Made by a program: the position numbers and the translations under genes. Shown here piece by piece: positions 559 to 61,969 of a DNA stretch of 64,000 nucleotides (positions are counted from its first letter, which is position 1; each line of letters begins with the position of its first letter). The notes under the pieces are model-generated. The model had not been told where the DNA came from. It ran no database searches and saw nothing but the letters and a program-made list of their open reading frames with translations. Source of the DNA: an uncultured Bacteroides sp. (GTDB lineage Bacteria; Bacillota; Clostridia; Christensenellales; CAG-917); assembly GCA_964499325.1 (NCBI GenBank), contig CAZCKS010000002.1:59-64058 (forward strand), read 5' to 3'.

Positions 559-569
559 TTGCTCAATGT

Positions 570-5337: not shown

Positions 5338-5468
5338 TTGCAACTTGTTAAATTATGCCTTATTTATCGGCGTTTTTGTTTTGCCGTTATATTGCGTTTT
5401 TATTGTGTTTTTATCACGTTTTTATTGCACATTTTCTTGCGCTGTTCCGCAAAATTATGCGAACCGTT

Positions 5469-12083: not shown

Positions 12084-12238
12084 ATCTTCACTCGTGTTTC
12101 TTGTATGTCTTTAATCCGTACTTGACGAATTATATATCATTTTTGCAACAATGCAATCTATTTTTCGCACGTTTTTGTCAAAATTTATCAAATAATGTCG
12201 ATAGTATGACATTATTTTTAAAATCGACAGTATGTTTA

Positions 12239-35474: not shown

Positions 35475-35507
35475 AACATCCCTCCGAGACATTATTCATT
35501 ATACGTT

Positions 35508-35582: not shown

Positions 35583-35621
35583 ACAAAAAGACAAAAGGCC
35601 CTGCTTGAGCAGAGCCTTTTT
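35583..35621. terminator. intrinsic terminator of the giant gene
   Basis: The hairpin AGGCCCTGC-TTGA-GCAGAGCCT (35596-35617) has T/A runs on both sides. It lies about 25 nt after the stop at 35643. Confidence 0.75.
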
Positions 35622-41600: not shown

Positions 41601-44600
41601 AACCTTGATGACGTTGTTTGCATCGCTTTCCTTCCAAGACGTATTGCCTTGCCAGTTGTAAGTGAAGTCGTCCGTATCCCAAGTGATTATGCCCGCCGGG
41701 AAGTTTCTGCCCTTGGGCATCTTGCTCAAGTCGATTACGCAATAAGTGATGTCTTCAAGTTCGACCGTCACATACTCTCCCTTTTCGTTGGTCTCAAGAC
41801 CTTGGATGTATGCCGGCAAGATATAGTACTTGTTGCCATCCTTATTGGTGTTTGCAGTTGCGGTGCCGTCGTCGATTTCGTCTTGCGAAGGTTGAGCCAA
41901 CATCTTGTAACCGCCGTTGCCGTCTCTGACCACCGCATACATTGTGCTACCCGTGCTGTCCGTTGCCACCGTACCGAAGGTATAAGTACCTGCCGAGAAG
42001 GAGATTTGGACAAGGTTCGGGAGTGTTGTTCTGAATGTCTTTGACGTGCTGTCAAGATCAAGGATGATGTCTTTTGCCTTGAAGCCCGTCACATTGCCGT
42101 TTGCATCCGTATTGGCGTCGTATGCCCTAATGCCCGTCTGATCAAAATCGTTGGTGACGTACACAGGGATTGCATAAAGCACCGTGTTGAGCGCATAGCC
42201 GTAGACATAGCCTGCCAGCCATCTGCCGTTGGTGTCGTTGTCGCGAGCAGCGGTGAGATTTACCGACGCAGCGTCCCAAACGATATGCGTACCCCAAGCG
42301 TCCATATACGGAGTGTCTGCATTATAACTGTGGTATCCGTTGCCGAACGTGACGTCCGCCATTTGCGGGAAGTATGTCTCATCGAAGAAGTAACTGTCTC
42401 TCAATGCAAACTCTTTCTCTTCTCCGCCCGAGTATACTGCCGTGCCTGTACGTGTTGCAGGATCCTTGATGACGATTTCCGTCGGAGCCTTTGTTTGACC
42501 GGAGATAGTCTCTGCGCTGTTTGAATCATCAAACGTCAACATACCCGTATAGTAATCGGAGTGTGTTGTGCTGTACGGAGTTATGCGCAGCATGAAGAAG
42601 TCCCAAGCGTTGTCGTTGATGTCCGTCGTAGTACCATCAGGTTGCAATCCATATTTGAAGTTGCCATAGGACGTTGACGTCTTGTTGTAAAGCATAGACG
42701 TACCGCTATAATTACCGTTGCTGTCCGGACCGGTCTTCTTGCCGTTGACCATGATTTCGATTGCTTGAACACCGGGTTGCATTGTGCAATTAGAGCAACC
42801 GTACTCGCTCGGAGTCGGGTCAAGGTCAATGTAGATGTTGATTGACGGGTCGATTTCACCGCTTGCAAACGGAATCGGGAGAATACCGCCGATAAGTTTT
42901 TGGATGTCAACGAGTGAATCGTTTGCAACGCTTCTTATGGTTCCCCAGTTTACCATCGAAATGTTAATTGCCGGTTCAACAAGGCAGACGATAACCCACT
43001 TCAAGAGTGTTGCAGGCAATGATCTTGCAAACGGCTCGACATACAATGCCTTTTCAGCCGTTGTTGCTCCGCGTTGTACAAGAGCGTCGAGACCGTCAAA
43101 GAACTTGGTGATTTCATCTGTGTTGCCAACAGAAGAAATTTGCGCTCCGCTCTTTGTCCAAGCGACCTTATCATCGCCGAGTTTCTCAACGTCTGCAAAG
43201 AACACTTCGCCGTCTTCGCCGTCAATACCCTCTTGCATAAGTCCCATAACAATGGTGGTTATCATAATAGCCAACTCGTTGTATGCGTCCTTATCGAGAG
43301 TCATCTTGATTGACATCTTACCGATACTGCTCGTGGAGATCGTGGCGCCGGAGTAGTACGGCCAATAACCATAATCGTTGAGGAGGTTTACGTCAAGGCT
43401 CTTGATGAGTCCGGACATATTTGCACTATATGTGTATGCCGTCTTCTTCTTGTTCCATCCGCTGGACGTGCTAGACAACTCGTTGTTGCCTGCGATGGTT
43501 GCATCATCGCTTGCGATGCTCGCCGAGGACGGATATGTGTATGTGCTGTTGTCTCCGTCAGTGCCACTTACCAAGCCGATGAGCGGATATTCCAATCCGA
43601 GCAATGACGTAAGGTCGATACAGTCAAGGAAGTCGCTAAGATTTTTAACCCAACTTATAAGTGTACCGTCAACGGCTATGTTCGTCAAGAATGCGTTGTT
43701 TCCGCCGATGATACCGACAAGACTGGTCTTTGATCTTTGGACACTTGCTCCGCTTGATGTGACGCCTTTTGCCGTCAAGTTGAGGCGGAGGTTGTATTTT
43801 TTACCACCGGACTCGTTCTCCACTTGGTTGGTGTAGAGATACTCTTTGAGCAAATCAAGCGTAATCGATGATGTTGCATGGTCACCCTTGACAGCAGATG
43901 ATGTTGACAAACCGTCCATCTTGGTGCCGTCCGCCATTGCTTGCCATACCTTGTTTTGGATGTTGATACTCAAGCCCGGGTTCAGGTTGTCGATGACGTT
44001 TTGGATGAGCGACATCATACCTGACGTGCTGGAGAAGGTCAAACCTGCATAACCTGCCTTGACAGAGTTGATTGTATCCTTGGATGAGAATGCCTCGCCT
44101 CTGAATGCAAAGTTGATGTCATTGATGCCAAGCGCAACACTTGTGCCAACGCTATCGAGGTCTGCGCCGAGGTTGATACTGTTCAAGCCCTTTGTAGACG
44201 TCATTATATCCAGCGATACTTGTTGGATGGGTGGCAAATCAACGCCGAGCATGCTCTTAAGGTCGAGATTGAGCATTGCAAGCAATGCGTCGATAACAGA
44301 TCTTTCAAGCGTGACGCTCATCTTGCCGTTTTCAATGCCGATGGAGAGTGCAAGTGCTTCGCTTGCGCTTGTGCTTGCACTCGTTGTGCCGTCTGCACTT
44401 GCCACAGCGTCTGTGGGCACTTGGTTGTACGGAGTTGCGCCGAGCAATCCGCTCAAACCTTGGAATTTGATCTTACCAAGACCGATACCGCTTGCGTCGA
44501 TGTAGATTGCGTCGGAGAATACCGTGCCGTCTTCATCTGTCAATTCCCAAGAGTTTCCGCTCTTCTTAAGTGCGGAAGAGCCAAGGTAATAGACGGAGAG

Positions 44601-47600
44601 TATCGTCTTGTTGAGTGTCTTGTCTTTTATTTCAAGCGCAATATCACTGTAGAGGATACCGCCGATACCATAAGTGATTATTGTGCCGAGATTGAGGTTT
44701 GCCTTGAGTGCAATGGTCAATTCAAGGATGTCTGCAGGCATTCTCAAATTGATGTCAGCCATCACAAACTTGTGCGTGCCAATCGTGCCCTCTTCCGCCG
44801 CAACGTAGGTCCTTGTCGCGCCGTCATAGTTGTACGTCTTGCCGGTGTATGAGGTCTTCTCTGCGCCTTCCAATTCTTCAAACGTACCGAACATAGACGT
44901 GCCGTCAAGCATAGTTGTGAGCAATTCCACAATCCAGTTTGCAAACGAACGGCTGTATTTGTCCTTATCGCCCTCCGGTGAAACCGTCGAGTCGGTTGAC
45001 AACGTTACGTCGATGTTTGCGGTGAAACCGATTGTCGGCAAGTTGAGACCGCTAAGGTCAATGCTACCGCCCTCGTTGATGAGGTTGTTGAGGTCAAGCA
45101 TGAGGATTGGCTCGCCGTAATCACTGCTGTTGAACGGACCGTATTTGCCGCTCATGTTAATCAACGTCTTGCTCATAGATGCGGCAGGAATATCCACGCC
45201 AAAGTACAATCCATCGCTGAGTCTGATGCTCAAACTTGTTCTTGTTGCGCCCGGCACGTACTTGTAATCGCCGTTTGCGTCATAGATGTAGTTGCCGTTC
45301 TCATATCTGAATCTCGAACCCTCGTAGGTTGCCTTTTCCGCATCCGTGAGTTTTTCGTATACTCTCGTCTCACCTCTCAAGAGGATGTCGCCGAGGTCGG
45401 GAAGGAGATTCTCGCTGTAATCGAGACCGCGGATTTGTTGTATCTTGCGATAGATAACATTGATAAGGTCAGCGTTGAGTTGGAGCAAGAGTTTTTGCGG
45501 ATTGACGGTTATCATCAAGTACGCATAATCTCTCATTGCGTCCTCAATCGTCTTGATGTCGCTTGCGTCGGATGTGCCTGCTTCACCCTCTTCCGTCACG
45601 GTGTCGTCCGTTTCGAGCATCTTGCCGAGGAGGCTGTAAAGCAATCCTGTCTTTCCGCCGAGGTTGAGACCGCCGATGCAAATCTTCGCGCTGTCGCCAA
45701 GGATACCTTGCAAGTCGATGTAGAGGTTGTCAACGCCGTTCTCTCTTACAAGGTAAATACCCATAAGAGTGGTTTCGCCGTCAATATTGCTGTTGCGGAC
45801 AATGCGCAAGCCAAGTTCTGCCATCCAGTTTTCAAGGTCAATGTTTGCGCTCAACTGCATCTTAAGGTATGCGTCGGTGTTATTACCTATTGCATTGGTG
45901 ATGAGAAGTTGCAACGACGAGCCTGAAATTGCACTGTTAGGATCGATAAGTCCGACAATGAGGTCAAGCAATTCGCTCAAATCAATGACGTTTGCGTTGT
46001 TTTGAGTGTTGCCGCTGCCGTACAACGAGATGTCGATTGACATATCGAGACCAAGTTTGAGCGTCTTGAGGCTGACGTATTTGTCATACGTCGGGTTGTC
46101 CTCTTCGTCCTTAACGATGTTGCCTTTGCTGTCTCTGTCTGCAAACGTCTCTGCCTTGTCAACGGAGAAGTCCTTGTTGAATCTTGCATAGAGACCGCCC
46201 ATCGTGATGGAGAGACGGAAGTCGCCTTGTTTGAGGTAGTTGCCTGCCGAATTCTTTGTGAATGTACCGGTGCTTGCGTCGTATGCGTATCTGTCGCCTG
46301 TCCATTGCGGGAATGCATAGGAGATAAGCGCATATTCGTCTGTTGAGACAAGCACATAGTTTGCATTGTCAAAGGATTTTGCAACGGTGTAGTTGCCGTC
46401 ACTGTCCTTTGTGAATGTTGTCATATTGCTCGTCCAAGTGATACCGTTGCCCCTGTTGATGTGAGAACCATTGGCGCCGTATTGTGCGTTGTATTCCTCA
46501 ACAGTGAGATAGAATTCGGTACCAACCTTGAAGCCGAGGTTAATGTCAATGCTCGGTTGATTGTTGTAGAGGTTGATTGTCAAGCCTGACGTGTCTTTGT
46601 CGTTGGTTGTGTAGAGTTTTGGCAAGAACTGTGCAATGCCTTGCAAAATCTCGCTATCGCTGTCTGCGAACATTGCCACAAGGTCTGCAAGCAATGTCTC
46701 GTTGAGACCGATTGTCACAAAGTCGTTTGCAATGAGCAATCTGCCAAGAACGAGGTTGACAACGCTCCAGATGTTCTCCGGCAATACGCCTGTATCGACG
46801 TTTTCGTCATCATCCACCGCCACGACTGCAGACGAAGAGGAATCTCCGCCAAGCAATGTGCCAAGGTTGAGACCGTTGATAACGCCGTAGGAGAAGAAGT
46901 CGCCCCAGCCAAGTTCTCTACCAATCTCTTCTGCGTCGAGCATCACGTAGAGTTTGCCACCGATTATCTCTGCCCAAAGTTTTGCGGTCGGAGGATCGAT
47001 GTTGCCGTGATAGTTGGTTGCATATTGAATTTCGAGATATATCTTTGCGCCTTCGAGGACATCGAGGATTGTTGCCTCTCCGTCACCTGCGAGCATTCTC
47101 AAAAGTCCTGCCGTTTGCAAGTACACCTTGAGGTCAAGATTGAGACCAATCGTACTTGTGAAGGACGTGTATGCGTCTTCCATTGAAGATGCAATGAAGT
47201 AGAGATAGTCGCAGATATTCTCGTCGTCGATAAATCTCGTAAGTTGATATGTCCAGTTGATGATGTCGCTCAACTTCATATTGATACCGACGGATGCGCC
47301 GATTTCAACACTGTTGAGGTCACCCAGCATAGATGCGATGTCAAGCGTTGCGCCGTTCAACAAATCATTGAGGTTGAGGTCGACAATCTTGGAGTAGTTT
47401 GTGAAGTCACTCGTCATCTTGTACGCTTTTTGCGGTGCGTTCGGATAGAAGTATTCACCGCTCGTATAAGATGCCGTCGTCACTTTGCTCGCAGTGTAAG
47501 TGGAGTACGTGTATGTGTTCTCGCCTACTTTCTTTGTGGTTTGCGTGCGTGTATAGAGCACTCCGCTGTAATTTGCGCCACTTGTGTATGCCGTGAAGCC

Positions 47601-53600: not shown

Positions 53601-56600
53601 TGCAAAAGCCGTTTCGGAATCGCCATTGTATTTATATTTGTCGATGTCGGGTATAGCCGCAAGTTCTTGTTCAGTCAATTCGCTCAAAAGTCTATATTGC
53701 GTCTTGCCGAAGTCTACGCCGAGAGAGACATTGAACACGTCAAACACTTCTTCGATAGATCCGAGATCGGGCATAAGCGTCGAAAGAACAAACGCTATCA
53801 ACGCACGTGTGATTTGGATTTGGAAGTGCGTGTCGCTGTATGCGAGCATTATGAGTGCGTCTCTTACTGCAATGGCACGCTCCTCTGCATAAGGCTCGAC
53901 GTCGGACGCTGTTTGTGCGTCGCTTCCGCTGATACTGCTAATCTTGTCTGCGACTTGTTTTGCAAAGGACATGAAGTTGTCAATCTTGGAGTAGTTCTCC
54001 GCCGTGCCGACAACTTTTGTAAGGTCGATATAAAGTGTATCGTGGTTGAGATATAATCCGCCCAAAACCTTTTCTTCGCCGTTAGAATACGTTGCAAAGA
54101 ATCCGTTTGCGTCAACTTCGATAAATTCGATTGCGAGTTCGACTTTGTCAAGGTCGCTATTTGCGATAAATGCGTCGATTCCTGCGCCGGAGAGCAATCC
54201 TGCAAGGTCAAGCGCCGCAAGGTCGACGTTTGCGGAAATTCTCACGCCGATACCTGCGTTGAATGCAGACAATGTTTGCAAGTTGATTATCATATCTCCG
54301 AAGAGATTGCTGATAAGACCGCCTGCATTGACAGCCTCTGCGCTTTGAGAGTTGAAGTAAATGAGACCGCTGACGGACAAACCGATGTTTTGATCTTCGT
54401 AAACCGCCTTTGTTCCCTTGTTATAAAGTTGTACTTTTGTTAATTCTTCCGTTACATAGTTATAACGCGTTGCGCCTGCGTGTGCGCTCTCGTCGTATGC
54501 AACATAAGTCTTTGCTTGTGCGTCATACACGTAACCGCCGTTTGCGTCCTCGACAAAGTATGTTGCTTTGCCTTCTGCGTTGACGGTTGCGGGAATGCGA
54601 GCATAACGTTCGCTATCTGCAACGGTTTCGCCTGCGTTGATAGGACGATACATGTTTGCTTTAAGCACATAACCGCCATTGACGTCTGAGACAAACACAT
54701 AGTATTCGCCGTCTTGCACAGGGCTTTCTTCTTTGCGATATACTTCGCCGTTGAAGCCGTTGATCAAGCCGAGAATGTTGTCAACGTATTCGTTGAGTGA
54801 AATGAAGTTGCGGCTTTCGTCGATGTCGAGCATCGGTTGATATGTATCCGTGCTTTCAAGCGTGAATTGTGCGTTTACGCCGACAAGCAAATCCCAGGTA
54901 TATTGTTGATATTCTTCATTGTTTTCAACAGATGCAGGATCTTTTCTGTTTGCGAGCGTCGCTTTCAATTCGAGTGCGAGCATATCGTCGTCGCCGAATT
55001 GCTTTTGCGGATAGAGGAAGATACCGCTGTGACCGTCGTCAAGCAATACCATGTCGTTGTTGATGTTAGTCTTGAGCAAGAGTGAGAGCAAATCGTTGAT
55101 AGCCTCGCTTCTGAAGAAGATTCCGAGTCCTCCGATAGCGTTGTTGAGGTCTTTTGCGCCCCACAAATTCTTGCTTACGACAACGTTCTTGATAAGGCTG
55201 TTGATGATTCCCATCACATCGAGAGAGGAATCTGCGCTCTCGTCTGCAACAATAGCGTCGTCAGAGGAATTACCACCGAGGTCGATACCGAGTGCAGAGA
55301 GCAAATCGAGAATATCCACTTGGATACGCGGACCGCCGATACCGCTTGCATCGAGATAAAGCACTCCGCTCAAGAGGTAAATGTCCAATTTGGACGTGCT
55401 ATCTTCGCCAAGTTCGTACGTGAAGTCAATGCCGATATGTGCCTCAAGTCCCTTCAAAATCGTCTCGATGTCGAGATTGAGATTGTCAAGGTCGATATTT
55501 GCAAGGTCGTTCATGCCCATATCTTCGAGGTTAAGACGAACGTTGATGTCAAGTTTAAATCCGTCGTCAATCTTGTCAGAGAGCACCAACGAGAGTCCGA
55601 AACGCTCAAGCAAACTGCCAAGGCTTATCGCATTGTTTACCATCTCGACACCCAATTCTTGATCGGTTGTATCGAAACGGATTTGTGGCAACATTGTCGC
55701 AAGTATGTCTTGCAGGCTTTCCATACCAAAGAGGTAATCGAGCAATGTGTCGAACTTGAAGCCTTCACGGATGTAATTGCCGTTATTGTCTTGAACAAAT
55801 CTATTGTTAGAAGATTCGTAACTATATCTATCCGCAGGCGCGTACGTACCAATCTTTTCATCGTCCACGAATGTGTACGTTGCACTGCCATAGTAGTCAA
55901 CGATGACGCTCAAATCAAGTGCGATGATGTGTGCCTCTGTAAGTTCGGTATACTTGTCCTTGTTGTTGACTTTAGACTTGATTTCATCCGAGACTTTGTT
56001 CTTGATGTTTTGGCTTATAGGCGTATCATCGCCCGTTGCGAGAGAAATGTCTTTAACGCTTACGCCCAAAGCAATAAGGTTGCTGTCGACATTAAGGTCA
56101 AACTTGATGCTCGGCTTGATTTGGAAATCAACGCCGACAGACAAGTCGAGGTTGAATTTCTCAAGCAATTCTGCGATGTCAATATCTGAAGACGCATCAC
56201 CGCTTGTGAGGGCGGCGATAAGTCCAACAATGACATTTTGCATAACGAGAACGCCCATCTTGCCGTCTGCAATCGTGAGAATTGCTTGCATCTTTTGCTC
56301 TGCGGAATACTCGTCAACATCATCGGATGCCACGGATGCGTCTCCGTCACCGCCTATAACGCTGTTGAGGTCGCCAAGCAAGTCTGCAATCGTGTTGCAC
56401 ACCACTTCTGCAATGTTGGTGTCTTTGAGATAGAAAGGCTCTCTGCCGAGGTCGCCGAAGTCAAAGTAGATGTCTCCGCCATTTACATAAATTGCAAAGA
56501 TGTTCTTGTTTTCTTCGTTATCTTTGATTTCAATCAAGATTTGAGAAGAGTTTGCGTCGTTAAGCACGAGGTTTGCACCAAGTGTCAAACCAAGGTCGAG

Positions 56601-59600
56601 CGTGATGTCGTCTTGGAAATCGATGCCGAGTTTAAGACCAAGGTCTTTGATGAGCAAATCGAGATAGTTTTCAAGGCGAATTTCTTCATCTTGTTTCTTC
56701 AAATCCACTCTCAAACCGAGTTCGAGGTTGAGAGACAATGTGTTGAGGTTCTCAAAACTTGTATAAACGGACGCGTCGAAATCATCTGGCAAAATACCGC
56801 CGTCAACACCGAGTTCGATGTTAATCGGGCAGAGTTCAAAGCCCATTTCAAGCGGGGACGCCTCAACGTTGAGTTCGAGTTTATAACCATTCTTCCAGAC
56901 AAAGGAGATATAACTGTTATCAGAATTGAGTTGGAGGAATTTTTCCGGTGCGATTTGCTTGCCCGTAAGCATGCTTACCACCGTAGCGACAAGCGCTTGT
57001 GCAAAGTTGACCTCGATACCGTCTCCGCCAATACCGATATGGCTTATGATATTGCCCAAAGAGGAGCCGATAATACCCATAATATCGAGTCCGCCATCCT
57101 CTGCGCTTTCGTCTGCCGACGTATAAGCGACAGCCTCTGCGTCATCGGAAGGAGTGAGCAATCCGCCCAGCAACGATTCAAGCGGAATGTTGGTAAGTGC
57201 AACATGGAAGTCGTCCTTAAGGTCGAGATAAAGCGTGCTTACGGTTTGTCCGTTCAATTCACCTGCATAGACAAGGCGCAATGCGAGAATAACGCATTCC
57301 AACTTCTCTGATGCGCTCATGTTGTCAACTTCGTTGATGTTCTTGTTGTAAATCTCGATAGCGAGATCGCTATGTGAGAGGATATATCCAATATCAAGTG
57401 CGGATGCTACGGAATAAAGAGCAACGTCTTTGAAGGATTCCGCATTGTCGTCCGTAACATTGACTTTGACGTATGTACCGCCCATTTCTACGAATGCTTC
57501 GCCTCTGAATGTTGCGTCGTATGCTTGTGCATCAAGAGCGATACCGCCCTTTTGATAGTGCTTAACATACACTGCTCCCGTGTAAGAGGTGCGTTCTGCG
57601 TCGGTGAGAAGCACATATTTGCCGTCATCCAACTTGTAGACTTCCACCATGTTCGCAAGAGTTTGCGAATAGGCAGAATATCTCTTGAATGAGACGTTTT
57701 GCGTCAAATCGATAGGTGCATCGGGGTTGAGACGCACATTGAGTGCGATACGGAAACCGATGTCGGACACTGTATCGTCGGTGTTGAATTGCAAAAGCAA
57801 TTCGCTTATGAACGAATTGAGGTCTGAAGACGTATCGTCGAGGAAGTTTGCAATCCACTCGCCGATTGTCCATTGCTCGTTACCTGCTTTTGTGCCAAGG
57901 CTAATCGTACCCTTTATTTCTGCGAAAATGTTGGGGATTGTGATGTCGCCGAAGTCATTGAAGAGACCTGCGTCGTCAAAGAGCAAATCTTGCAAGTACT
58001 CGTTAAGTTTGAGTTCTGTTCCGTCACGAACGATGACGATGTCATCTGTTGCAACCTTTCTGTCGCCGATATTGAGGCTTGCGTCTTTAGCATAGATTTG
58101 TGCAGAGCCCGTCTCTTTGCCGGCGTCGTTCTTGATTTCACCGCCGACACGGAATGCCTTGCCGTCATGTTCTTCAAGTTGATCCCATGCGATGTCAATC
58201 CATGCAGACACGTCATTTGCGTCAATGCCGATGAGTGCGTAAACGATTTCTGTCAAGCCTTCTGCAAGTTCAATTTTGAGGCTATCGGAGGAAAGCAATG
58301 CGATGATAGAAAGCGCAAGTTGTTGTTTTGCGACATCTTCACTTGCAGTTCCGTCGCTTGCGACCATTGCGTCGCCGATTGCGCCGTTGCCGTTAATGCT
58401 GATTGTGCTGTCTTTTGCAAGCAAGCCGAGAATGACCTCGTAGAGGTCAATGTTCGTTTTGAGCCTATTTACGCCAAAGTTGCTTGCGTCGACATAGAGT
58501 TCTCCGCCGACATAATACAAGCCGAGCAATACTTGAACGGGGTTCGTGCCCTTCTTGCCCGTAAGTTCGATGAGCAAAGAGGTTGTATTGTTCTTTGTAT
58601 TGATTTCGTTTTCGCCGAACAAATATGAGATAATCGGGGACAAGTCAAGTTGTCCTGCGATGCGGAATTCATAATTGAGAGAGATTTGTTTGTCGAAAGA
58701 GAATGATGTTGAATTCAACGTCTCTACGACATACAATCCCGATGTTTCGTCTTTGTAATAAAGTTTGCCGGTATATCCTGTGGGGACCGCTTTATCCGCT
58801 ATTGCGACATATTCGGATGTGCTTTCATCATACCAGTGTGTTCCTGCAATACCGAATTGTGCAATCGTGGTGCCCTCGTCCGCCTTGAGGTCAAGTCCGA
58901 GGGTTATATCGAATGAAATATAAGGATAATCGAGAATGGATATAAACTCTTGTGCTTGTTCGTCGGGGAGATAATGCACGCAACCGTCCGTCAAACCTGC
59001 ACTGATACCGTTAAGCGCAATACTTGCGTTGAGGCTGTTGCCCAAGCCGATATAAAGACCGATTTCAAGTTCGTTGAGGTTGAGACCATCGTTGAGAGCC
59101 ACTCTCAAACCGCCTTGAATATCGGAGTTTTCAAACGCAATCGTAACGCCCTCGATGTTGAGCATATCGAGCAATTCGTCAAGTATGCCACCGCCTACGG
59201 CAATTTCAAGAGCATTGTTGCCGAAACTTACGCCTTGGAAAATATTTGCGATAAAGCCGATAATGGCATTTACGTCCATACCTTCCTCATCCTCTGCAAC
59301 GATAGCGTCGGAAGCGTCGGTTGCACTGTCGTTTGTGCCCAAAGAAGAAATCAATTCGGAAATGTTTACCTTGATTTTGCTTACGTTAATCGAATTGAGC
59401 AAGGAAGCGTCGAGATAAAGCACTCCGTCTTGCAAATAGATTGCAAGCACTGTCTCGCGGCTGCTGTTGGTGATAGCGATTTTTGCAGTAGATTTGAGAA
59501 TTGCGTCGAGGTCAAGTCCGTCGGATGCGTCAATATCTGCGCTGATTTCAATGCCGAGACCGCCTTTAATGTTGCCCAATTCGAGAAGCACGTCAATGAG

Positions 59601-61880
59601 CAAGCCCTTGAACGTTTCGCCCAAAGACGCATCGGGAAGATCTACTTTGATGTTGGCAAGAGAGCCTTTAAGCGTCTCAAAGTCGATGTCAAGACCTGTA
59701 GAAACGTTGATATGCAACAAGTCCGCATTCAACTCGCCGTTTTTGAGGATGGGCAAATATTTGTCCGCATTCTCTCTTACGTTTGCAAATGCGTTTGCAA
59801 AATATTGTTCGTTTTCGACTTTACCAAAGGTAATTGCACCGATAAGAGCAAGATCGAGGTCAAGTCCGTCCGTATTGTCGGAATTGGGGATATAAATGCC
59901 CGTCTCGACTTCAAGGCGTTTTTCCTTTTGACCGCCGTCGTTTACAAGAGCAAGTCTTGTCTTGTCTGTTTTAAGCGGAATTTTTGCACTTGCATTGTCG
60001 CCCGTAAATATAAGGCCAAAGAGCATATCGAGGACGTCTTGCGTAAGAGCAACGGAGATTTCTCTGATGTTGAAGATGTTTTCGTCCATCTCAAACTTAA
60101 TGCAGTTGACAATCGTTGAGATGAGGCTCATGACGTCGACGTCGCCGTCTGCCGTCAAGGCATTGTGTTCAACAACAATGTCTCCGCTTTGGAGCATCGC
60201 TTGATATTGTGCGGATGCCGTTGCGTCACTGTTTACCGCATTGAGAACGGTGTCAAAGAGTTTGTCAAGCAATTCGTCGATAAGTTCGTTGACGTTGATG
60301 TCGTCAATTCTGAACTTCGTACCACTGTCGCCCAACACACCGCTTGCGTCAATATAAACGCCTTCGAGTGCGCCGTCATAGTATGCGCCGAGTCTGGTTT
60401 TTCCACCGTTACCGCGCACCTCTGCCAAAATTTGCGTCTTGTCTTCATCCTTGGTGTTGATGACGCCTTGCAAAACTATGGAGAGTTCGATTTTTTGATT
60501 GTTTATAGTTATATCTTTCGCAAAGAGAGGAGCGAGAGACTCCAACATCTCTGCAGATACGTTTGCAGTGAGAATATTTGAAATGAGTGTGCCAAAGGAG
60601 CCTATAGCGTCGTTGATTGTCACCGTACCGTCTTTGAGGTTGAGTGAAAGCGTTATAGATGCGTCGAGAGTGAGGAATGAGTATTTATTTGTGCTGTTTT
60701 CTACGTTCGCATAGAAGTTGTCGGAGGTGTCTTGACCTTCAGCAAACGGAACGTTGTCTTTATTGCGGTTTTTGAGCATTGCGACAACGTCGATATCCGG
60801 AGTGCCTGCAAATTCGGCTTTTGCATAGCCGAGAGAAATGCCCACTTCGGATTGGAACACGTCGTATCTGTTTTGAACCTCTTCCACCCCATAGGAGTTG
60901 AAGTCCGTATCGATGTCAAATCTGATTCCGGCAAGAGAGTTGTCTCTGATGTCCGCTTCGAGATAGAGAGCCACACCCGCCAAAGAGCCGAGTTTGCCGA
61001 GGTCGAGTCCCAAAATATCCTTCACGAGATCCGTGATGTTTTCGGGGATAAGACCTTGCAAAAGCGGAACAAGACCTACGATAAGTCCGAGGTCACAAGG
61101 AATTTGCAATATTGCGTGTCCGCTACCATAATCAACGTAACGGGCTTGGTTTCCGCCAAGAAGGATTGTCGTTATCAAACTCTCAACAGTCATGCTGGCA
61201 ATGTCCATCTTGATAAGACTGTTGATGAGCGAGCCGATGTCATAGCCGAGAAGTTTCTCAAACAACAATTCGGAAATATTAAGTTCGGAAAGGAATGCGT
61301 CGAATTTCTCGACAAGTCCGCCGAGATCTATATCATCCGTCCACACAACGTTTACGCCCTTCTTGATACCGCGCATATCGGCAACAAGTTTGCCCTCATA
61401 GTAATATGCTCCGAACAAGAGTTTGCCCTCTCCGCTGTTGGAAAGGCTTGTAATCGTATCGGCGTCTATGGTCAATCCGGCAAGTTCCGTCGTCTTGAAT
61501 TGTCTAAATTCAATCAAGATTTCGCTTGTATCGTCGGCTTGAGATGTCGCTTCGGTATCGATCTTGCCTGCAAAGCGCATTGTCACAAGGCTGTCATAAG
61601 CGTCTTTGGCAAAACCGAGGATAAACGTTGTATCCACCGATATGTAGCGAGACCCCTTACCGCTCTCCGCTCCCGCATTAAGTGCGGATTGCTTGAATAT
61701 CTGCCAAGCAACTTGCGAATCAAGCGTCGTCTTATTATCGACGATCGGGCCCGGTGTGGGCGTCGGAATAACAGGCGTTGTCGAGCCGTCTTCTTCCGTC
61801 GTATTACAAGCAACGAGACTGAACAGCATTACGCTGACCAGCACGAGCAACAATACGAGTGTTAACTTTCTCATTCTCAT
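35643..61880 (-). CDS. giant (8,745 aa) modular surface lipoprotein, function unknown
   Basis: This is a single stop-free frame of 26,238 nt. The context is GGAGGAG SD, then ATG, then the signal peptide MRMRKLTLVLLLVLVSVMLFSLVAC with a lipobox. About 14 divergent modules are followed by a C-terminal Ig-like array. It has its own consensus promoter and terminator. Confidence 0.9.
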   Translation of the reverse strand: MRMRKLTLVLLLVLVSVMLFSLVACNTTEEDGSTTPVIPTPTPGPIVDNKTTLDSQVAWQIFKQSALNAGAESGKGSRYISVDTTFILGFAKDAYDSLVTMRFAGKIDTEATSQADDTSEILIEFRQFKTTELAGLTIDADTITSLSNSGEGKLLFGAYYYEGKLVADMRGIKKGVNVVWTDDIDLGGLVEKFDAFLSELNISELLFEKLLGYDIGSLINSLIKMDIASMTVESLITTILLGGNQARYVDYGSGHAILQIPCDLGLIVGLVPLLQGLIPENITDLVKDILGLDLGKLGSLAGVALYLEADIRDNSLAGIRFDIDTDFNSYGVEEVQNRYDVFQSEVGISLGYAKAEFAGTPDIDVVAMLKNRNKDNVPFAEGQDTSDNFYANVENSTNKYSFLTLDASITLSLNLKDGTVTINDAIGSFGTLISNILTANVSAEMLESLAPLFAKDITINNQKIELSIVLQGVINTKDEDKTQILAEVRGNGGKTRLGAYYDGALEGVYIDASGVLGDSGTKFRIDDINVNELIDELLDKLFDTVLNAVNSDATASAQYQAMLQSGDIVVEHNALTADGDVDVMSLISTIVNCIKFEMDENIFNIREISVALTQDVLDMLFGLIFTGDNASAKIPLKTDKTRLALVNDGGQKEKRLEVETGIYIPNSDNTDGLDLDLALIGAITFGKVENEQYFANAFANVRENADKYLPILKNGELNADLLHINVSTGLDIDFETLKGSLANIKVDLPDASLGETFKGLLIDVLLELGNIKGGLGIEISADIDASDGLDLDAILKSTAKIAITNSSRETVLAIYLQDGVLYLDASLLNSINVSKIKVNISELISSLGTNDSATDASDAIVAEDEEGMDVNAIIGFIANIFQGVSFGNNALEIAVGGGILDELLDMLNIEGVTIAFENSDIQGGLRVALNDGLNLNELEIGLYIGLGNSLNASIALNGISAGLTDGCVHYLPDEQAQEFISILDYPYISFDITLGLDLKADEGTTIAQFGIAGTHWYDESTSEYVAIADKAVPTGYTGKLYYKDETSGLYVVETLNSTSFSFDKQISLNYEFRIAGQLDLSPIISYLFGENEINTKNNTTSLLIELTGKKGTNPVQVLLGLYYVGGELYVDASNFGVNRLKTNIDLYEVILGLLAKDSTISINGNGAIGDAMVASDGTASEDVAKQQLALSIIALLSSDSLKIELAEGLTEIVYALIGIDANDVSAWIDIAWDQLEEHDGKAFRVGGEIKNDAGKETGSAQIYAKDASLNIGDRKVATDDIVIVRDGTELKLNEYLQDLLFDDAGLFNDFGDITIPNIFAEIKGTISLGTKAGNEQWTIGEWIANFLDDTSSDLNSFISELLLQFNTDDTVSDIGFRIALNVRLNPDAPIDLTQNVSFKRYSAYSQTLANMVEVYKLDDGKYVLLTDAERTSYTGAVYVKHYQKGGIALDAQAYDATFRGEAFVEMGGTYVKVNVTDDNAESFKDVALYSVASALDIGYILSHSDLAIEIYNKNINEVDNMSASEKLECVILALRLVYAGELNGQTVSTLYLDLKDDFHVALTNIPLESLLGGLLTPSDDAEAVAYTSADESAEDGGLDIMGIIGSSLGNIISHIGIGGDGIEVNFAQALVATVVSMLTGKQIAPEKFLQLNSDNSYISFVWKNGYKLELNVEASPLEMGFELCPINIELGVDGGILPDDFDASVYTSFENLNTLSLNLELGLRVDLKKQDEEIRLENYLDLLIKDLGLKLGIDFQDDITLDLGLTLGANLVLNDANSSQILIEIKDNEENKNIFAIYVNGGDIYFDFGDLGREPFYLKDTNIAEVVCNTIADLLGDLNSVIGGDGDASVASDDVDEYSAEQKMQAILTIADGKMGVLVMQNVIVGLIAALTSGDASSDIDIAELLEKFNLDLSVGVDFQIKPSIKFDLNVDSNLIALGVSVKDISLATGDDTPISQNIKNKVSDEIKSKVNNKDKYTELTEAHIIALDLSVIVDYYGSATYTFVDDEKIGTYAPADRYSYESSNNRFVQDNNGNYIREGFKFDTLLDYLFGMESLQDILATMLPQIRFDTTDQELGVEMVNNAISLGSLLERFGLSLVLSDKIDDGFKLDINVRLNLEDMGMNDLANIDLDNLNLDIETILKGLEAHIGIDFTYELGEDSTSKLDIYLLSGVLYLDASGIGGPRIQVDILDLLSALGIDLGGNSSDDAIVADESADSSLDVMGIINSLIKNVVVSKNLWGAKDLNNAIGGLGIFFRSEAINDLLSLLLKTNINNDMVLLDDGHSGIFLYPQKQFGDDDMLALELKATLANRKDPASVENNEEYQQYTWDLLVGVNAQFTLESTDTYQPMLDIDESRNFISLNEYVDNILGLINGFNGEVYRKEESPVQDGEYYVFVSDVNGGYVLKANMYRPINAGETVADSERYARIPATVNAEGKATYFVEDANGGYVYDAQAKTYVAYDESAHAGATRYNYVTEELTKVQLYNKGTKAVYEDQNIGLSVSGLIYFNSQSAEAVNAGGLISNLFGDMIINLQTLSAFNAGIGVRISANVDLAALDLAGLLSGAGIDAFIANSDLDKVELAIEFIEVDANGFFATYSNGEEKVLGGLYLNHDTLYIDLTKVVGTAENYSKIDNFMSFAKQVADKISSISGSDAQTASDVEPYAEERAIAVRDALIMLAYSDTHFQIQITRALIAFVLSTLMPDLGSIEEVFDVFNVSLGVDFGKTQYRLLSELTEQELAAIPDIDKYKYNGDSETAFAEVQDTQLDMYYATETGYYTSNRILYEMNDAGQYEATSKQYDAEGTYYIAPDSQYELVTGIAYGKYIHQNSDYYGLVRFGGAEEKVSLNNYKMYTRQNGARVQTSTYIKGNTFVLYNGNEVAIEKLYDYQYGYVKYNGIDNIDDYTYYRTVELFDSIDEYYLGLDIAVGCVNLGLKLGGLNLTVGGGKELLPDYIRDQKEHSYVNEKGEEVQYESSLSDTEKDKFEEIKTNPFYDTIITLGFSVELELGITEGTLDLGQILSTIVGNLTGIVVEMPSTSKGYSSAHFRLDVSLMMDIYDLTNSELKIELLNITETGYESLWLGAYYVNDTIYLNLEEAFNIQKVAIGGLNIADLLGDILIDFSDDDDYFTFGATDASNADAFVAGGSVANGDVDFSNKDLALSMLINKDLLTIALGDKLFDTILEYIPEDLLGFDIKDLFYQEINGSLQLKLDTSDKINLEASVALGLDGERFTSVSINDVKNAQKAGKLFIDNTSDVQGIADTEEERYYYFAVAEDGNYVQGNDGQYMRAISPTDDVNGVTRYARYRIVDVFENAETDKPAQIKVRKVVDNGSNDGSEKLDDTVVSITISDTLKVYNFVEGASANKSYSSDGAKYDTALELMLAIKDLDIAFTNSRTYVLSGDELKEYTNFDDVDRFTLEETIDISTSFSYKNDIDLSTVLATFIPGLTQEQLLVIQSQSDTNGDVDRSLQLVIKADIQVAALLNYFRTELIKYAGDSDQFDGDMDLFSVIELLGQVIGSIGDAELGEIVANIASFVNLSLVIQTKGGNDSDYHDLLGIYMAGGTFELLDEANGDLDETNENYVAPENRFDHYFETKNGSYYRDSNGKYQLIQSDEYAGTRYSYDSSYCYSNEKGRYKRVNGGLFIDLSYFNIPSVKVDASEVRKLVGSLFTLGATDDAMTADGELADDTSVFPLVKDDSILGYIRSLAYGMQVTSRYIKVLTQPDIINQLLKLLMGEDAVQFDEAGFQNKSALTIFTDNTRYTYDNRADVIANATNAINNTQNETERINARKDLVSKLEQSKNLFKVEESANGIYYIDDDNAYTQKSDMSTLERAEYDALVATGVKKYYNVTMVKTYINVGGKYMLYSDASQSQVNASVKDSALAQIGVSMPQLYVASGNGYVAVDNSEYSVVRPLEARNAFISLDLFLWDYEVSLNINAPHVGVTEFLYADVTNENGNDVATDKYGNKYENIAKGAYYVNTDEIIYTSVDKEADGMDNWELDYYDGANFSAEKYAQAPRYYEYKNSYYVIDKDTLYVKEGKNYVLATSTSKNNGAFPNYLEDIQKNDTQYYVATGVSYTPIQRVFIYKQEKYNTEKKVLLSELREQLIASGLSEAEADAQLDAQSKHIKVQQDSTVLPPDFSDAKYADYAYKTYVDTEDLYYLSLTLSGSVFLQAGKIYFSYADYVSAYKEIKKTEPNDSDISEYFYKKVQGDYVKVSSTDNIANLKKDGNLYVWVNEALGDKYSGVNEALGDVLGGLLGGMKGTFQVTEDMTFNVYFTLRLNLGFKLYILPSFGIDVRDLDVAIDVWGEQNDKYSIGNGQYAYISTADRNAGDYDVKLLDGTKPHLFGLYYNNDQETGKAGLYLDLESLLGKDAKVYVDMSKYSLEDLISGLVGGLMSDDDAMTADEYTEKYNNDKQGTDKMGLYVNIFTNAIALNVTSGFVKVLMNELLTDSSSIVDMLPNFKVYVKQDLNPYQLTLGAILFNEQGDIPVINFGFNLQGLNGERGTSSMIEFGKKEDILANQTGSNNIFYYANFHRDNSNTNYSNYYGKNFDEKDFVKLYRDVDGNEYYAKENGGYELTKKDDNSGLYTAKVNAKGGYALYKSVNGTTVTNYGPEDRYVKADTVMEEIKESRRYSLGSPYRTEYQSTVYTDISGQYVLVQEKLNNISNSDYRYLANSKQFGAFNGTLYVLDEDDNYIKVSKSDIQGFTGSGSLQYAKMGEYSANETEKKGAVVVDGVTYYPIDPNGDGYTDMYEADGFTAYTSGANYSGVLYTRTQTTKKVGENTYTYSTYTASKVTTASYTSGEYFYPNAPQKAYKMTSDFTNYSKIVDLNLNDLLNGATLDIASMLGDLNSVEIGASVGINMKLSDIINWTYQLTRFIDDENICDYLYFIASSMEDAYTSFTSTIGLNLDLKVYLQTAGLLRMLAGDGEATILDVLEGAKIYLEIQYATNYHGNIDPPTAKLWAEIIGGKLYVMLDAEEIGRELGWGDFFSYGVINGLNLGTLLGGDSSSSAVVAVDDDENVDTGVLPENIWSVVNLVLGRLLIANDFVTIGLNETLLADLVAMFADSDSEILQGIAQFLPKLYTTNDKDTSGLTINLYNNQPSIDINLGFKVGTEFYLTVEEYNAQYGANGSHINRGNGITWTSNMTTFTKDSDGNYTVAKSFDNANYVLVSTDEYALISYAFPQWTGDRYAYDASTGTFTKNSAGNYLKQGDFRLSITMGGLYARFNKDFSVDKAETFADRDSKGNIVKDEEDNPTYDKYVSLKTLKLGLDMSIDISLYGSGNTQNNANVIDLSELLDLIVGLIDPNSAISGSSLQLLITNAIGNNTDAYLKMQLSANIDLENWMAELGLRIVRNSNIDGETTLMGIYLVRENGVDNLYIDLQGILGDSAKICIGGLNLGGKTGLLYSLLGKMLETDDTVTEEGEAGTSDASDIKTIEDAMRDYAYLMITVNPQKLLLQLNADLINVIYRKIQQIRGLDYSENLLPDLGDILLRGETRVYEKLTDAEKATYEGSRFRYENGNYIYDANGDYKYVPGATRTSLSIRLSDGLYFGVDIPAASMSKTLINMSGKYGPFNSSDYGEPILMLDLNNLINEGGSIDLSGLNLPTIGFTANIDVTLSTDSTVSPEGDKDKYSRSFANWIVELLTTMLDGTSMFGTFEELEGAEKTSYTGKTYNYDGATRTYVAAEEGTIGTHKFVMADINLRMPADILELTIALKANLNLGTIITYGIGGILYSDIALEIKDKTLNKTILSVYYLGSSALKKSGNSWELTDEDGTVFSDAIYIDASGIGLGKIKFQGLSGLLGATPYNQVPTDAVASADGTTSASTSASEALALSIGIENGKMSVTLERSVIDALLAMLNLDLKSMLGVDLPPIQQVSLDIMTSTKGLNSINLGADLDSVGTSVALGINDINFAFRGEAFSSKDTINSVKAGYAGLTFSSTSGMMSLIQNVIDNLNPGLSINIQNKVWQAMADGTKMDGLSTSSAVKGDHATSSITLDLLKEYLYTNQVENESGGKKYNLRLNLTAKGVTSSGASVQRSKTSLVGIIGGNNAFLTNIAVDGTLISWVKNLSDFLDCIDLTSLLGLEYPLIGLVSGTDGDNSTYTYPSSASIASDDATIAGNNELSSTSSGWNKKKTAYTYSANMSGLIKSLDVNLLNDYGYWPYYSGATISTSSIGKMSIKMTLDKDAYNELAIMITTIVMGLMQEGIDGEDGEVFFADVEKLGDDKVAWTKSGAQISSVGNTDEITKFFDGLDALVQRGATTAEKALYVEPFARSLPATLLKWVIVCLVEPAINISMVNWGTIRSVANDSLVDIQKLIGGILPIPFASGEIDPSINIYIDLDPTPSEYGCSNCTMQPGVQAIEIMVNGKKTGPDSNGNYSGTSMLYNKTSTSYGNFKYGLQPDGTTTDINDNAWDFFMLRITPYSTTHSDYYTGMLTFDDSNSAETISGQTKAPTEIVIKDPATRTGTAVYSGGEEKEFALRDSYFFDETYFPQMADVTFGNGYHSYNADTPYMDAWGTHIVWDAASVNLTAARDNDTNGRWLAGYVYGYALNTVLYAIPVYVTNDFDQTGIRAYDANTDANGNVTGFKAKDIILDLDSTSKTFRTTLPNLVQISFSAGTYTFGTVATDSTGSTMYAVVRDGNGGYKMLAQPSQDEIDDGTATANTNKDGNKYYILPAYIQGLETNEKGEYVTVELEDITYCVIDLSKMPKGRNFPAGIITWDTDDFTYNWQGNTSWKESDANNVIKVGYSYQWGDSNTVNKTLEITAKNYKISRLTNMTKADGTRVNFTSERDDDGNYTTIYKISALDLATSDLASYIDAFTSAQVKYVVGASIPTMDLDWDLSELNSAIDALRNEDGTINYYKGLEATVTAKLGGNMFKVSTTVTQTTLSSTTVGFVGKEETYTGNFAQEVKVKIIVTGSEFSSLNGAVTFDPYSAKEITAQSLGSAFDINFKGVDESQKVSVGNKLSVEAPFVKIDDDKYVSATGKYALGENDITYDGYKGEYPLYAKFTIGTEFSGKQEHYLPISIDTTAPTTVNVNVAHEDTFNPTWYKGDDYKSFNVSFGINTTHTMYPDWTTVKYYTNARCTTLKAEQSIYSGGTIYAQVDAYVYENNDSDGNALGLVQTKDSDGNTVLKAQTITLKLNVEQQQIASVNFFYDSTVGDIYSMSAEQREAIKSKLTDKDYYTGTVYAQTHIANGEAFGIAPIAFAKDSTAYFTSGEWGDINGTIVLVNLKKGTYSGKRYSIAESVNGTYKYDADSKKYVLIAGEYSGTRYSFTEAEDGDFKYEMAKKTYVQLTAGERGDSYLAYVNGWTSRVDNIGVTGVEKTVYAIIGNNTKVLVNVNAPSSEVTNVAFAFGSNALTQEGNEPSTLNLSYNVLEAWNLPASATVTLKEGKAPISTAVYWTNLASPTRDEIAMDDNGVYVERQYHFFDESDIRYPSTGEFTAKVYLDNFNANVTVTPNGQADKYNVFAPFTFVDTATVVANGTTYNNVPLKWADTSMPTADEIKQGWFERQAYVTISASGNVDELVSYTQHITINNNFTLEGLNGSYADGFSIERKGVDFFKGLPTNSVVKLDGAQNANVTLAWSDSYDNNGFSGVMTLTITGENLTTTVDVNVNVEGASIIGIAGYDEKTPFVFDPYWSASDATFFKSGSALKVDTTAGVADGVIVTYSLAQIDPNNLKSDADFYANISKYFGKKYTIDITYNYVGGASAMSETGKINIVIGDRTILFISDYEYRALVIDTFLTSDASGLKNELMVTTIGSWDGVLAYFDWSYVDSLIKSKKSNTSYRATAIVGIESADGDYVYVDADGDGKKEYVAVKDFEGELADETRYYLAKQKVSVPVTVLDRTIVDGEILITNSNLEVKHVDTKYSTITDTLIGKEEGSGRYVEIVYDKDSGMPTDYVIYNNFAYVGGEYLPHYMQLTFASGDKGVYYVTYEGAPTAEDMESVTKTLEKTMTVRTWNVNPAEVAEGEAFEVMPSFEMKIKVKASKVTAFNSNIAYNNMSVGDYRYSFSPYASESDSVFNTSNYADTFTYYVDGQFISVRNWMWDGKTMEAGKPTYNSTYTKRHDIYNVYTVDGCGDIRGLESGAALYTLKNGTKTYTLYTGEVKADDENKTYTDANGNDLYVFIYVTTQTLNAEWNTSSAEYGYKGGTTSVKATATSRLEGNNANASVEVAVNIKSAKITADDVTLLGDSTQNKFWSANSNAFVIDPFSTVDGGVFKRASGYTGDRYEEATVSTTGYEKNNLDGKYKYVEVTENGTTEYKYVELSDEELDRNYAYFPTQMKVTIDGVETTVPVVWDFGGVNFSYAGGTFTAYALINYDGEYNYSGNKMNAQKVPFTVQIGNRSVQSVVSNSTLTALTGWNGTSTYINPYDYVKPTMPNTLTVTVLKANSTTATENRTYSTTSTTQNLAWNFSKFRPSYEGGVIYVTAKLTDIDGVVQNYDIPFLVQKMVVSSIDYNVNKSATATKRFATNVSDTSTYATSSAVSNGKASAKFVINPYDANSLKLPVSYKVNFNVYKPTYTGGVVTMSTTATTAEKTFNYTLVSMPASYKYTVSASGITSDIAGKSAIIQLGTQERISVEIAVASTTNLANTTVTAPITMSDTTVTALNLTYGTNNVPVAWFGTATVYDLAGQVVIASYAVTLSSARETTLLPPTFGARKVVYQLYAAVGTVIDASGDIVTTREATDSDVATGVVKGQIIPEYQVKSSLVTLTYEGGAWKKA

Positions 61881-61940
61881 AATCTCCTCCGAGGCACACG
61901 CGTGTCCTCACGTATGTGCGATAGATTATTATACGCGATA

Positions 61941-61969
61941 ATTATAGCGTTTTTTCATGCGCTTGTCAA
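61941..61969 (-). promoter_or_regulatory. perfect consensus sigma-70 promoter of the giant gene
   Basis: On the minus strand: TTGACA (61964-61969), a 17-nt spacer, then TATAAT (61941-61946). It lies about 60 nt upstream of the ATG. Confidence 0.7.

Follow-up and report, generated by a model that had tools for sequence, protein, structure and literature searches.

A single gene in the 64,000-nt stretch of DNA analysed here (hereafter the window; contig CAZCKS010000002.1 of assembly GCA_964499325.1, from an uncultured member of the Christensenellales) encodes a giant modular protein built of a previously undescribed domain and predicted, from its sequence, to lie at the cell surface; it belongs to a small family restricted to a single uncultured lineage of the gut. 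The open reading frame (ORF), located at 35643..61880 on the minus strand, as are all features described below, is free of stop codons over 26,238 nt and encodes 8,745 amino acids (aa; 957 kDa, pI 4.3). An original prediction made for the interval 44400-61500 had proposed about 14 strongly diverged modules with a fixed order of elements, namely a beta-signature, a LY(I/L)D(A/L)S turn, an acidic Asp/Ala segment and an amphipathic stretch. This interval lies wholly within the ORF, which holds all of the modules and reaches past it to nt 35643, and represents roughly the N-terminal two thirds of the gene. Iterated searches with a hidden Markov model (HMM), leave-one-out scoring and an alignment of the module cores all bear out the proposed array.

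The 14 signature strings on which the proposal was based were each found exactly once, about 10-20 nt from the places assigned to them and all in the same ORF, whose translation also contains every one of the linker and amphipathic strings cited as examples. Self-comparison of the giant protein by BLASTP supported an internal repeat, with 161 off-diagonal matches at E<1 versus 20-25 in three shuffled sequences, and 7 versus 0 at E<1e-3. An HMM iterated from the best module pair converged on 13 copies of a core of about 125 positions. As the scores of members against their own model are circular, weight was put on leave-one-out, shuffle and cross-protein tests. In the leave-one-out test, 11 of the 13 cores scored 11.5-32.8 bits and the two others (cores 1 and 5) about 4.7 bits, while the best score over 30 shuffled proteins was 2.2 bits. 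Profile-profile comparison of the modules, based on orthologue alignments, gave co-linear core matches with a probability of up to 95%; the same comparison detected no significant similarity across modules in the stretches between cores (150-600 aa), which have the layout alone in common. The proposed modules of 300-720 aa share their layout, but detectable homology is restricted to the core of about 125 aa. The mean pairwise identity of the cores is 21% and no exact DNA 20-mer is common to the modules, as expected from the claim that no repeat would be seen at the nucleotide level.

The remaining copy, core 12, whose signature had been placed at 46925-46980, scored at most 1.5 bits on its own (aa 4935-5069), which is not significant within the giant protein. 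Its best partners are the same-position cores of three relatives, P0032, P0036 and P0038 (Smith-Waterman scores 156, 121 and 222, respectively). Because the positionally equivalent cores of three relatives match it best, we consider core 12 as a degenerate but genuine copy.

From the N-terminus onwards, core 1 (61158..61574, aa 103-241) is the most divergent and lacks the DAxxA motif described below; it scored 4.6 bits in the leave-one-out test and has positional orthologues, as does core 5 (57000..57410, aa 1491-1627; 4.8 bits). The HMM and the leave-one-out test both support core 2 (60057..60476, aa 469-608), core 4 (58236..58619, aa 1088-1215), core 6 (56214..56585, aa 1766-1889), core 8 (53781..54182, aa 2567-2700), core 9 (52329..52736, aa 3049-3184), core 11 (48531..48917, aa 4322-4450) and core 13 (45447..45857, aa 5342-5478), the last of which was also modelled with AlphaFold2 (AF2). 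Self-BLASTP adds to these two lines of support for core 3 (59193..59531, aa 784-896) and core 7 (55146..55511, aa 2124-2245). The beta-signature of core 10 (50709..51113, aa 3590-3724) is split by a Tyr-rich insert, core 12 (46683..47078, aa 4935-5066) is supported by its positional orthologues only, and core 14 (44277..44705, aa 5726-5868; …AIYIDASGIGLGKIKFQG…) is the best conserved across the family.

The anatomy of the core was deduced from an alignment of the 13 window cores and 435 copies across the family. Its first element is a strand whose last residues are (I/L)-x-(I/L/V)-E-(L/I), followed by a variable loop, hLGhYY (h, hydrophobic), whose first Tyr is conserved at 82% across the family, and a Gly/Asn/Asp turn. 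Next come a L-Y-h-D-(L/A)-S strand (Tyr 83% and Asp 74% conserved across the family), a Gly, a K-h-K-h strand and a helix-like h-x-E-L-L-x-x-L. After these come a Gly- and Ser/Ala-rich acidic segment carrying [DE]-A-x-[TV]-A-[AD]-[DE] and then alternating I/L/V positions. The Ala of this acidic motif is conserved at 68% over the family, and the D-A pair is nearly invariant within the window protein. An acidic linker had been noted in 13 of the 14 modules, which agrees with our results: a strict search pattern places the DAxxA-type motif 26-45 residues past the signature Asp in 11 modules, with looser forms in modules 2, 12 and 14 and none in module 1. This linker, initially described as acidic and of low complexity, is indeed acidic and probably flexible yet not featureless; since it contains a conserved motif, it is not purely low-complexity. 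Measured from linker to linker, the shortest unit has 247 aa (aa 1597-1843) and the longest about 1,000 aa, with a common layout of amphipathic strands and helices, and the stalk modules of the window protein measure 275-730 aa.

Structure prediction was of limited confidence. An AF2 model of aa 5200-6100, which covers two cores and was built with 14 orthologues, reached a mean predicted local distance difference test (pLDDT) of 56, and its secondary structure alone was used. It displays meanders of 10-14-residue strands and short helices, the strands coinciding with the core elements, and its confidence is very low across both acidic linkers, which we read as disorder. Another model, of the core-to-core segment aa 1490-1895 (15 orthologues plus paralogues), had a pLDDT of 39 and was discarded. 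Mean-field direct-coupling analysis of 357 core copies (effective number, Neff, 347) yielded only three pairs of positions that beat a column-shuffled null: 19-34, 37-45 and 115-120. The first two lend support to a putative antiparallel pairing of strand A with LGxYY and of LGxYY with LYxDxS. Couplings between the beta-signature and the post-linker segment were within the noise of the shuffled null, and none is claimed.

The polar face of the signature hairpin (core positions 19, 36, 43, 45 and 56) frequently carries Glu, two Tyr, Asp/Asn and Lys, conserved at 39-83%, as illustrated by aa 1107-1145 (…LLIELTG…LGLYYVGGELYVDAS…RLKTN…). The LY(I/V)DAS strand resembles the VMVDA strand that is reactive in CnaB domains, which form isopeptide bonds. 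An intramolecular isopeptide triad involving the frequent Lys of core position 56 and Glu of position 19 (conserved at 39-74%) could be imagined as a matter of speculation.

To place the protein among its relatives, several collections were searched. The N-terminal 2,300 aa, compared with 5.8 billion proteins, gave 4 matches, all of them unannotated N-terminal fragments with the same lipobox, whereas the C-terminal 2,645 aa gave 24, all co-linear fragments of similar giants in which the cores are present wherever the fragment reaches upstream. A profile-based word-index search for further homologues returned 4, and a profile of 35 cores run against 1.84 billion cluster representatives recovered 145 proteins, 80 of them below 1e-10 and 29 below 1e-30. 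Co-linear homologues at 27-62% identity occur in many independent assemblies, including full-length proteins of 7,000-7,900 aa. The large members (3,600-7,900 aa) mostly carry 10-15 cores. Those that look complete (4,300-7,900 aa) have a lipobox, a first core at about residue 90-115 and 12-15 cores spaced at about 300 aa; their tail, which measures 960-3,700 aa, is very variable in length and sequence. With 14 cores, the first one at aa 103, and a tail of 2,877 aa, the window protein fits this anatomy. Since most database homologues are fragments cut at contig ends, the family is under-counted and mis-annotated.

The family is encoded by 63 of about 186,000 species-representative genomes, all uncultured metagenome-assembled genomes (MAGs) from the gut or rumen (human, including Hadza, mouse, rabbit and ruminant). 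The labels of the carriers are those of the deposited MAGs, mostly Clostridia, Clostridiales and Christensenella sp., with a few other bin labels. One carrier is a closed chromosome of 1.65 Mb, and the best identity to the window protein among carriers is 57%. In another assembly, GCA_051883595.1 (contig JBJETZ010000035.1, 1-19447), the giant gene, at 48% protein identity, is present as two ORFs of 5,555 and 3,148 aa lying 185 nt apart, a split due either to a sequencing or assembly error or to genuine splitting or pseudogenisation. Its downstream genes are those of the window: SPFH/zinc-ribbon, zinc-ribbon, Gate, MetRS, TatD, radical-SAM (rSAM), KsgA, EamA and TrmO.

In relatives that fall into other 50%-identity clusters, the closest partner of each of the 14 cores is the one at the equivalent position (11-14 of 14), and the same-position score is usually above the best score of any paralog within the protein. 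This positional orthology indicates that the array was already assembled when the lineages separated and that the number and order of its modules have not been lost thereafter. On the evidence of these comparisons, the array appears to have arisen once by ancient duplication and to have been inherited vertically, its sequences drifting to about 20% identity. The original prediction had likewise favoured ancient duplication over recent slippage, in agreement with the core identity of about 21%, the positional orthology and a copy number of 12-15 throughout the family.

The module corresponds to no named repeat, as had been suspected: sequence searches of Pfam, NCBIfam and PDB were empty even at lenient thresholds, and no described Pfam repeat family was matched. 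Scanning of all 8,745 aa against Pfam-A 2025 and NCBIfam r20 at E up to 1 gave no relevant match; the single sub-threshold match in each library (Lip_prot_lig_C in Pfam, PRK06487 in NCBIfam) was taken as chance. No recurrent family emerged when 16 core-to-core segments were scanned singly against Pfam at E up to 10. PDB sequences compared with the core profile, with a 901-aa profile and with the C-terminal 2,645 aa gave nothing below E of about 0.5. The phage and plasmid collections contained no match to the family, and we therefore rejected a mobile-element origin of the gene. Existing labels of family members read 'hypothetical protein' only. Literature searches found no title or abstract on this family of giant lipoproteins, and the full text of a survey of giant genes makes no mention of Christensenellales or lipoproteins.

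The N-terminus of the protein reads MRMRK-LTLVLLLVLVSVMLFS-LVAC, with a Cys at position 25. This signal peptide (MRMRKLTLVLLLVLVSVMLFSLVAC, 61806..61880) has the basic n-region, hydrophobic h-region and lipobox ([LVI][ASTVI][GAS]C) of bacterial lipoproteins and is followed by a Pro/Thr-rich tether. It is the sole hydrophobic segment of transmembrane type in the whole protein, and the lipobox signal is kept in every family member that looks complete as well as in P0001-P0004. We infer from this signal that Cys25 is lipidated, which would tether the protein to the outer face of the cytoplasmic membrane. At the other end there is neither an LPXTG motif near the C-terminus nor another C-terminal anchor signal, the last 40 residues being polar (…LTYEGGAWKKA). 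RTX-type GGxGxD motifs are absent from the whole protein, a Sec/lipoprotein signal being present instead, and Pfam/NCBIfam scans detected no S-layer homology, cell-wall-binding or other envelope-targeting domain in it.

A second, smaller repeat was found within the protein. It consists of a Tyr-rich element of about 65 aa (…NGxYxYD…KxYV…EYxGTRYSY…) present in at least five copies, four of them in modules (55743..55913, aa 1990-2046; 54333..54551, aa 2444-2516; 50907..51098, aa 3595-3658; 46200..46409, aa 5158-5227) and one in the C-terminal part (39891..40100, aa 7261-7330). Copies 3 and 5 were detected by self-BLASTP as well as by HMM. The seed pair aligns at a BLASTP E of 1.5e-4, and the copies score 60-88 bits against their own HMM (a circular value) versus at most 0.5 bits in shuffled sequences. 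The variable length of the modules is partly due to these inserts. No Pfam family matches the element, although by eye it is similar to repeats of the beta-hairpin type that bind sugars or the cell wall.

Downstream of core 14, the non-modular C-terminal part (35643..44276, aa 5869-8745; 2,877 aa) is Thr/Tyr-rich, beta-rich and devoid of a terminal anchor; relative to the rest of the protein, Thr, Tyr and Trp are increased and Leu is decreased from about residue 5870 to 8745. In the orthologue P0005, the Pfam Big_4 domain (PF07532) was recognised at 33.1 bits (gathering threshold 22.1) over residues 2702-2747, corresponding to about aa 8290-8340 of the window protein. An internal HMM seeded at the equivalent site detected five divergent Big_4-like immunoglobulin (Ig) domains in the tail of the window protein: three in tandem (38943..39737, aa 7382-7646), one at 37260..37478 (aa 8135-8207) and one at 36759..37019 (aa 8288-8374), the latter lying at about the P0005 position according to co-linear mapping rather than direct alignment.

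The gene is equipped with complete expression signals. A sigma-70-type promoter-like site, TTGACA-17-TATAAT (61941..61969), matches the consensus at 12 of 12 positions with a spacing of 17 nt, and a ribosome-binding site read from the sequence, GGAGGAG (61884..61890), lies 3 nt 5' of the ATG. At 23 nt past the stop codon, a hairpin whose stem measures 12 bp precedes a run of T and resembles an intrinsic terminator (35593..35620). Such a perfect consensus is unusual for any gene and, for that reason, suggests strong constitutive transcription of what would be a 26-kb message. The surrounding genes encode MetRS, TatD, KsgA, a radical-SAM protein, AdhE, [FeFe]-hydrogenases and a SpoIIE-type phosphatase, and this setting is the ordinary chromosome of an anaerobic Firmicute. 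Directly downstream of the giant gene lies a gene (34359-35492) whose SPFH/Band_7_1 product carries three zinc ribbons at its C-terminus, followed by that of a second zinc-ribbon protein (33281-34342); GCA_051883595.1 has this pair, too, behind its giant gene (19584-21783). Both genes have their own promoter-like sites and are separated from the giant gene by the terminator. A functional link between this conserved pair and the giant protein is possible.

As to the function of the protein, we favour a giant lipid-anchored surface fibre or adhesin with the modules as its stalk and the Ig-rich tail as its distal binding part, a reading for which we find about as much reason to believe as to doubt. 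According to this proposal, a secreted and very acidic 957-kDa protein would be tethered outside the cytoplasmic membrane through a lipid on Cys25, and residues from about 100 to 5870 would form a chain of 14 paralogous modules, each ending in the conserved core. The core would open with a meander of about four beta strands that carries an Asp and, across two strands, a Tyr-Tyr pair of invariant type (LGxYY-turn-LYxDxS), then turn into a short helix, a flexible acidic loop with [DE]-A-x-[TV]-A-[AD]-[DE] and an amphipathic strand or helix running into the next module. Between cores, further amphipathic strands and helices are predicted, with optional Tyr-rich hairpin inserts setting the length of the module. 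The chain may thus act as a long segmented stalk projecting the C-terminal 2,900 or so residues, with their Big_4-type Ig-like domains, off the cell, where this tail could bind host, dietary or partner-cell surfaces. The adhesin-like reading is supported by the lipobox as sole hydrophobic segment, the statistically supported repeat, the Big_4-like tail, the acidic composition, the lack of LPXTG and RTX motifs and the restriction to guts. It is further in line with the uninterrupted ORF and its expression signals, the positional orthology of the cores, the conserved neighbouring genes, the absence from phage and plasmid collections, the modelled strands and the covariation in the signature. Bacterial surface proteins that are giant, modular and equipped with a distal binding region are in most cases adhesins, as exemplified in PMC10619420, PMC9302970 and PMC12863079.

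Several observations weigh against this reading. The module region has no match to any characterised adhesin domain in Pfam, NCBIfam or PDB sequences, and the host is uncultured. The window protein itself falls below the Pfam threshold for Big_4, with no match in the whole-protein scan. Both AF2 models are of low confidence (mean pLDDT 56 and 39), and a Foldseek comparison of the pLDDT-56 model with PDB and BFVD gave noise-level results only, with template modelling (TM) scores of 0.05-0.13; matches to TbpB, LBP and Chorein_N were judged not meaningful on these grounds. As the models are of low confidence and the fold matches at noise level, the geometry of the stalk is something that we infer. 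Finally, the strict number and order of the modules and the motif inside the linker exceed the needs of a simple spacer, and many adhesin stalks use near-identical repeats instead.

Alternatively, the protein could be an envelope structure rather than an adhesin, in which case the conserved number (12-15) and order of the modules would mean a required length or ordered envelope contacts. It might be a scaffold spanning the wall, part of a surface coat or of something like an S-layer, or a fixed-length spacer or ruler, with the SPFH/zinc-ribbon protein as candidate partner. A single copy at a fixed housekeeping locus next to a conserved SPFH/zinc-ribbon neighbour, a perfect consensus promoter suggestive of high constitutive expression, and a gene that would take about 1.6% of the 1.65-Mb genome of a relative all go in the same direction. 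However, none of the S-layer homology, cell-wall-binding or envelope-targeting domains was found, the tails vary greatly (960-3,700 aa), as would a diversifying binding region, and the terminator and separate promoters divide the giant gene from the SPFH gene, so that we regard such a role as rather unlikely. That the whole gene might be an assembly artefact or a non-coding ORF, its motif arising from biased composition, is scarcely credible: nothing speaks positively for it, and only the fragmentary state of most homologues and the one MAG split into 5,555 and 3,148 aa call for caution, whereas a stop-free ORF of 26,238 nt is beyond chance and has complete expression signals, co-linear homologues are found in many independent assemblies including a closed chromosome, and the repeat signal outlasts composition-preserving shuffles.

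The modelled strands raise a further alternative. Antiparallel strands of 10-14 residues, which the low-confidence model arranges in meanders broken by disordered loops, alternate strictly between hydrophobic and polar residues (e.g. LDLGLTLGANLVLN, LSLNLELGLRVDL), and the protein has an N-terminal membrane anchor; it could on that account form a continuous amphipathic beta-groove of the VPS13/ATG2, AsmA/TamB/YhdP or TULIP-like type, the acidic loops closing each groove repeat, and conduct lipids or other hydrophobic compounds through the wall or into a partner cell. The top BFVD fold match of the model was a Chorein_N-domain protein (E 2.2e-4, probability 0.20, TM 0.08), and LBP and LptD appeared in the PDB fold list at E of about 1e-2, but TM scores of 0.05-0.13 from a model of pLDDT 56 carry almost no weight, and neither Chorein_N nor AsmA, TamB or DUF3971 was matched when the 16 segments were scanned singly at E up to 10. 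Moreover, the several amphipathic helices of each module could just as well be the cover of the sheet in a common alpha/beta domain, an Ig-rich tail is better suited to binding than to membrane insertion, and the host bacteria are Firmicutes and have no outer membrane to bridge to. A groove is accordingly improbable in our view. Its most specific form, one groove of about 6,000 residues acting as a conduit for lipids or hydrophobic compounds that crosses the wall and reaches another cell (e.g. a methanogen living in syntrophy) or a host surface, to which the Ig-like tail would hold on, seems more improbable still; if true, it would be the first system of the bridge-lipid-transfer type in a single-membrane bacterium, and an independent invention.

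Whichever of these roles applies, the giant lipoprotein is probably the largest protein of these bacteria, and its gene would occupy about 1.6% of a 1.65-Mb genome. The Christensenellales are reported to be among the gut lineages most consistently tied to host genetics and leanness (PMC6819567); the majority of them are uncultured. By its size, perfect promoter and predicted surface position, the protein is a prime candidate for attachment to hosts, food particles or partner microbes. The family is invisible to current annotation, with no Pfam, NCBIfam or PDB match, and the core of about 125 residues provides a usable signature for a new domain family and a marker to join gene fragments in metagenomes. 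A module number and order that stay fixed at about 20% identity also make it a natural case for studying the evolution and folding of very long poly-domain proteins.

Elsewhere in the window, three adjacent genes (10650-15077) are organised like a sensory-hydrogenase regulatory cluster beside a catalytic hydrogenase. The gene at 13404-15077 encodes a [FeFe]-hydrogenase-like protein that has a PAS domain at its C-terminus, the one at 12239-13411 a SpoIIE/PP2C phosphatase, and the one at 10650-12083 another [FeFe]-hydrogenase, which carries ferredoxin-like domains. The gene at 9119-10300 encodes a 393-aa protein of which DUF4236 (E 2.7e-21) is the only recognisable part.

Among known systems, the staphylococcal Ebh/Embp proteins are likewise Firmicute surface proteins of nearly 1 MDa and the largest products encoded by their genomes; they consist of dozens of repeated modules that make up an elongated fibre and serve in adhesion (PMC9302970 and general knowledge). 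Their modules are the all-helical FIVAR/GA domains recognised by Pfam, whereas those of the window protein are beta-rich and have no Pfam match. Ebh/Embp are generally known to be anchored by a C-terminal membrane segment, in contrast to the N-terminal lipobox found here. The Mobiluncus mulieris adhesin (7,651 aa) is of similar size, is also the largest of its proteome and also has a tandem array as presumed adhesive stalk, which reportedly consists of 51 recognisable Ig-like repeats with intramolecular cross-links (PMC10619420). Ig-like domains make up the array in that adhesin but are present only in the tail of the window protein, whose stalk modules of 275-730 aa are about 21% identical and not Ig-like by sequence, and which has no LPXTG motif. 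The Giant1-5 proteins of Apilactobacillus kunkeei, as described in PMC12863079, are likewise huge extracellular proteins (3,000-8,000 aa) that take up a large share of a genome of about 1.5 Mb in a host-associated Firmicute; largely unannotated by sequence, they were interpreted from predicted structures. They possess an N-terminal beta-solenoid binding domain and form a five-gene cluster subject to recombination and exchange, whereas the family described here consists of a single, vertically inherited gene at a fixed locus and is lipobox-anchored with its variable region at the C-terminus; no sequence relationship between the two was detected, no direct comparison having been made. In its presumed function the window protein comes closest to these three systems, without belonging to any of them.

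More distant likenesses are found outside surface adhesins. The bridge-like lipid-transfer proteins VPS13/ATG2 and AsmA/TamB/YhdP are generally known to be very long, N-terminally anchored and made of repeated long strands and loops, with divergent repeats in an ancient fixed number, as is the case here; the window protein differs by the lack of any sequence-family or confident structural match to them, by the helices in its modules, by its Ig-like tail and by a host without an outer membrane. In titin, neighbouring domains also share a fold at about 20-25% identity, an analogy of design only, since titin is an intracellular eukaryotic protein made of Ig/Fn3 domains. The low identity between neighbouring titin domains is thought to limit inter-domain misfolding and recombination. 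Taken together, and by analogy, the window protein may represent the familiar adhesin design assembled from other parts, with an N-terminal lipid anchor in place of a sortase signal or C-terminal transmembrane segment and a new module in place of Ig, FIVAR or Rib domains.

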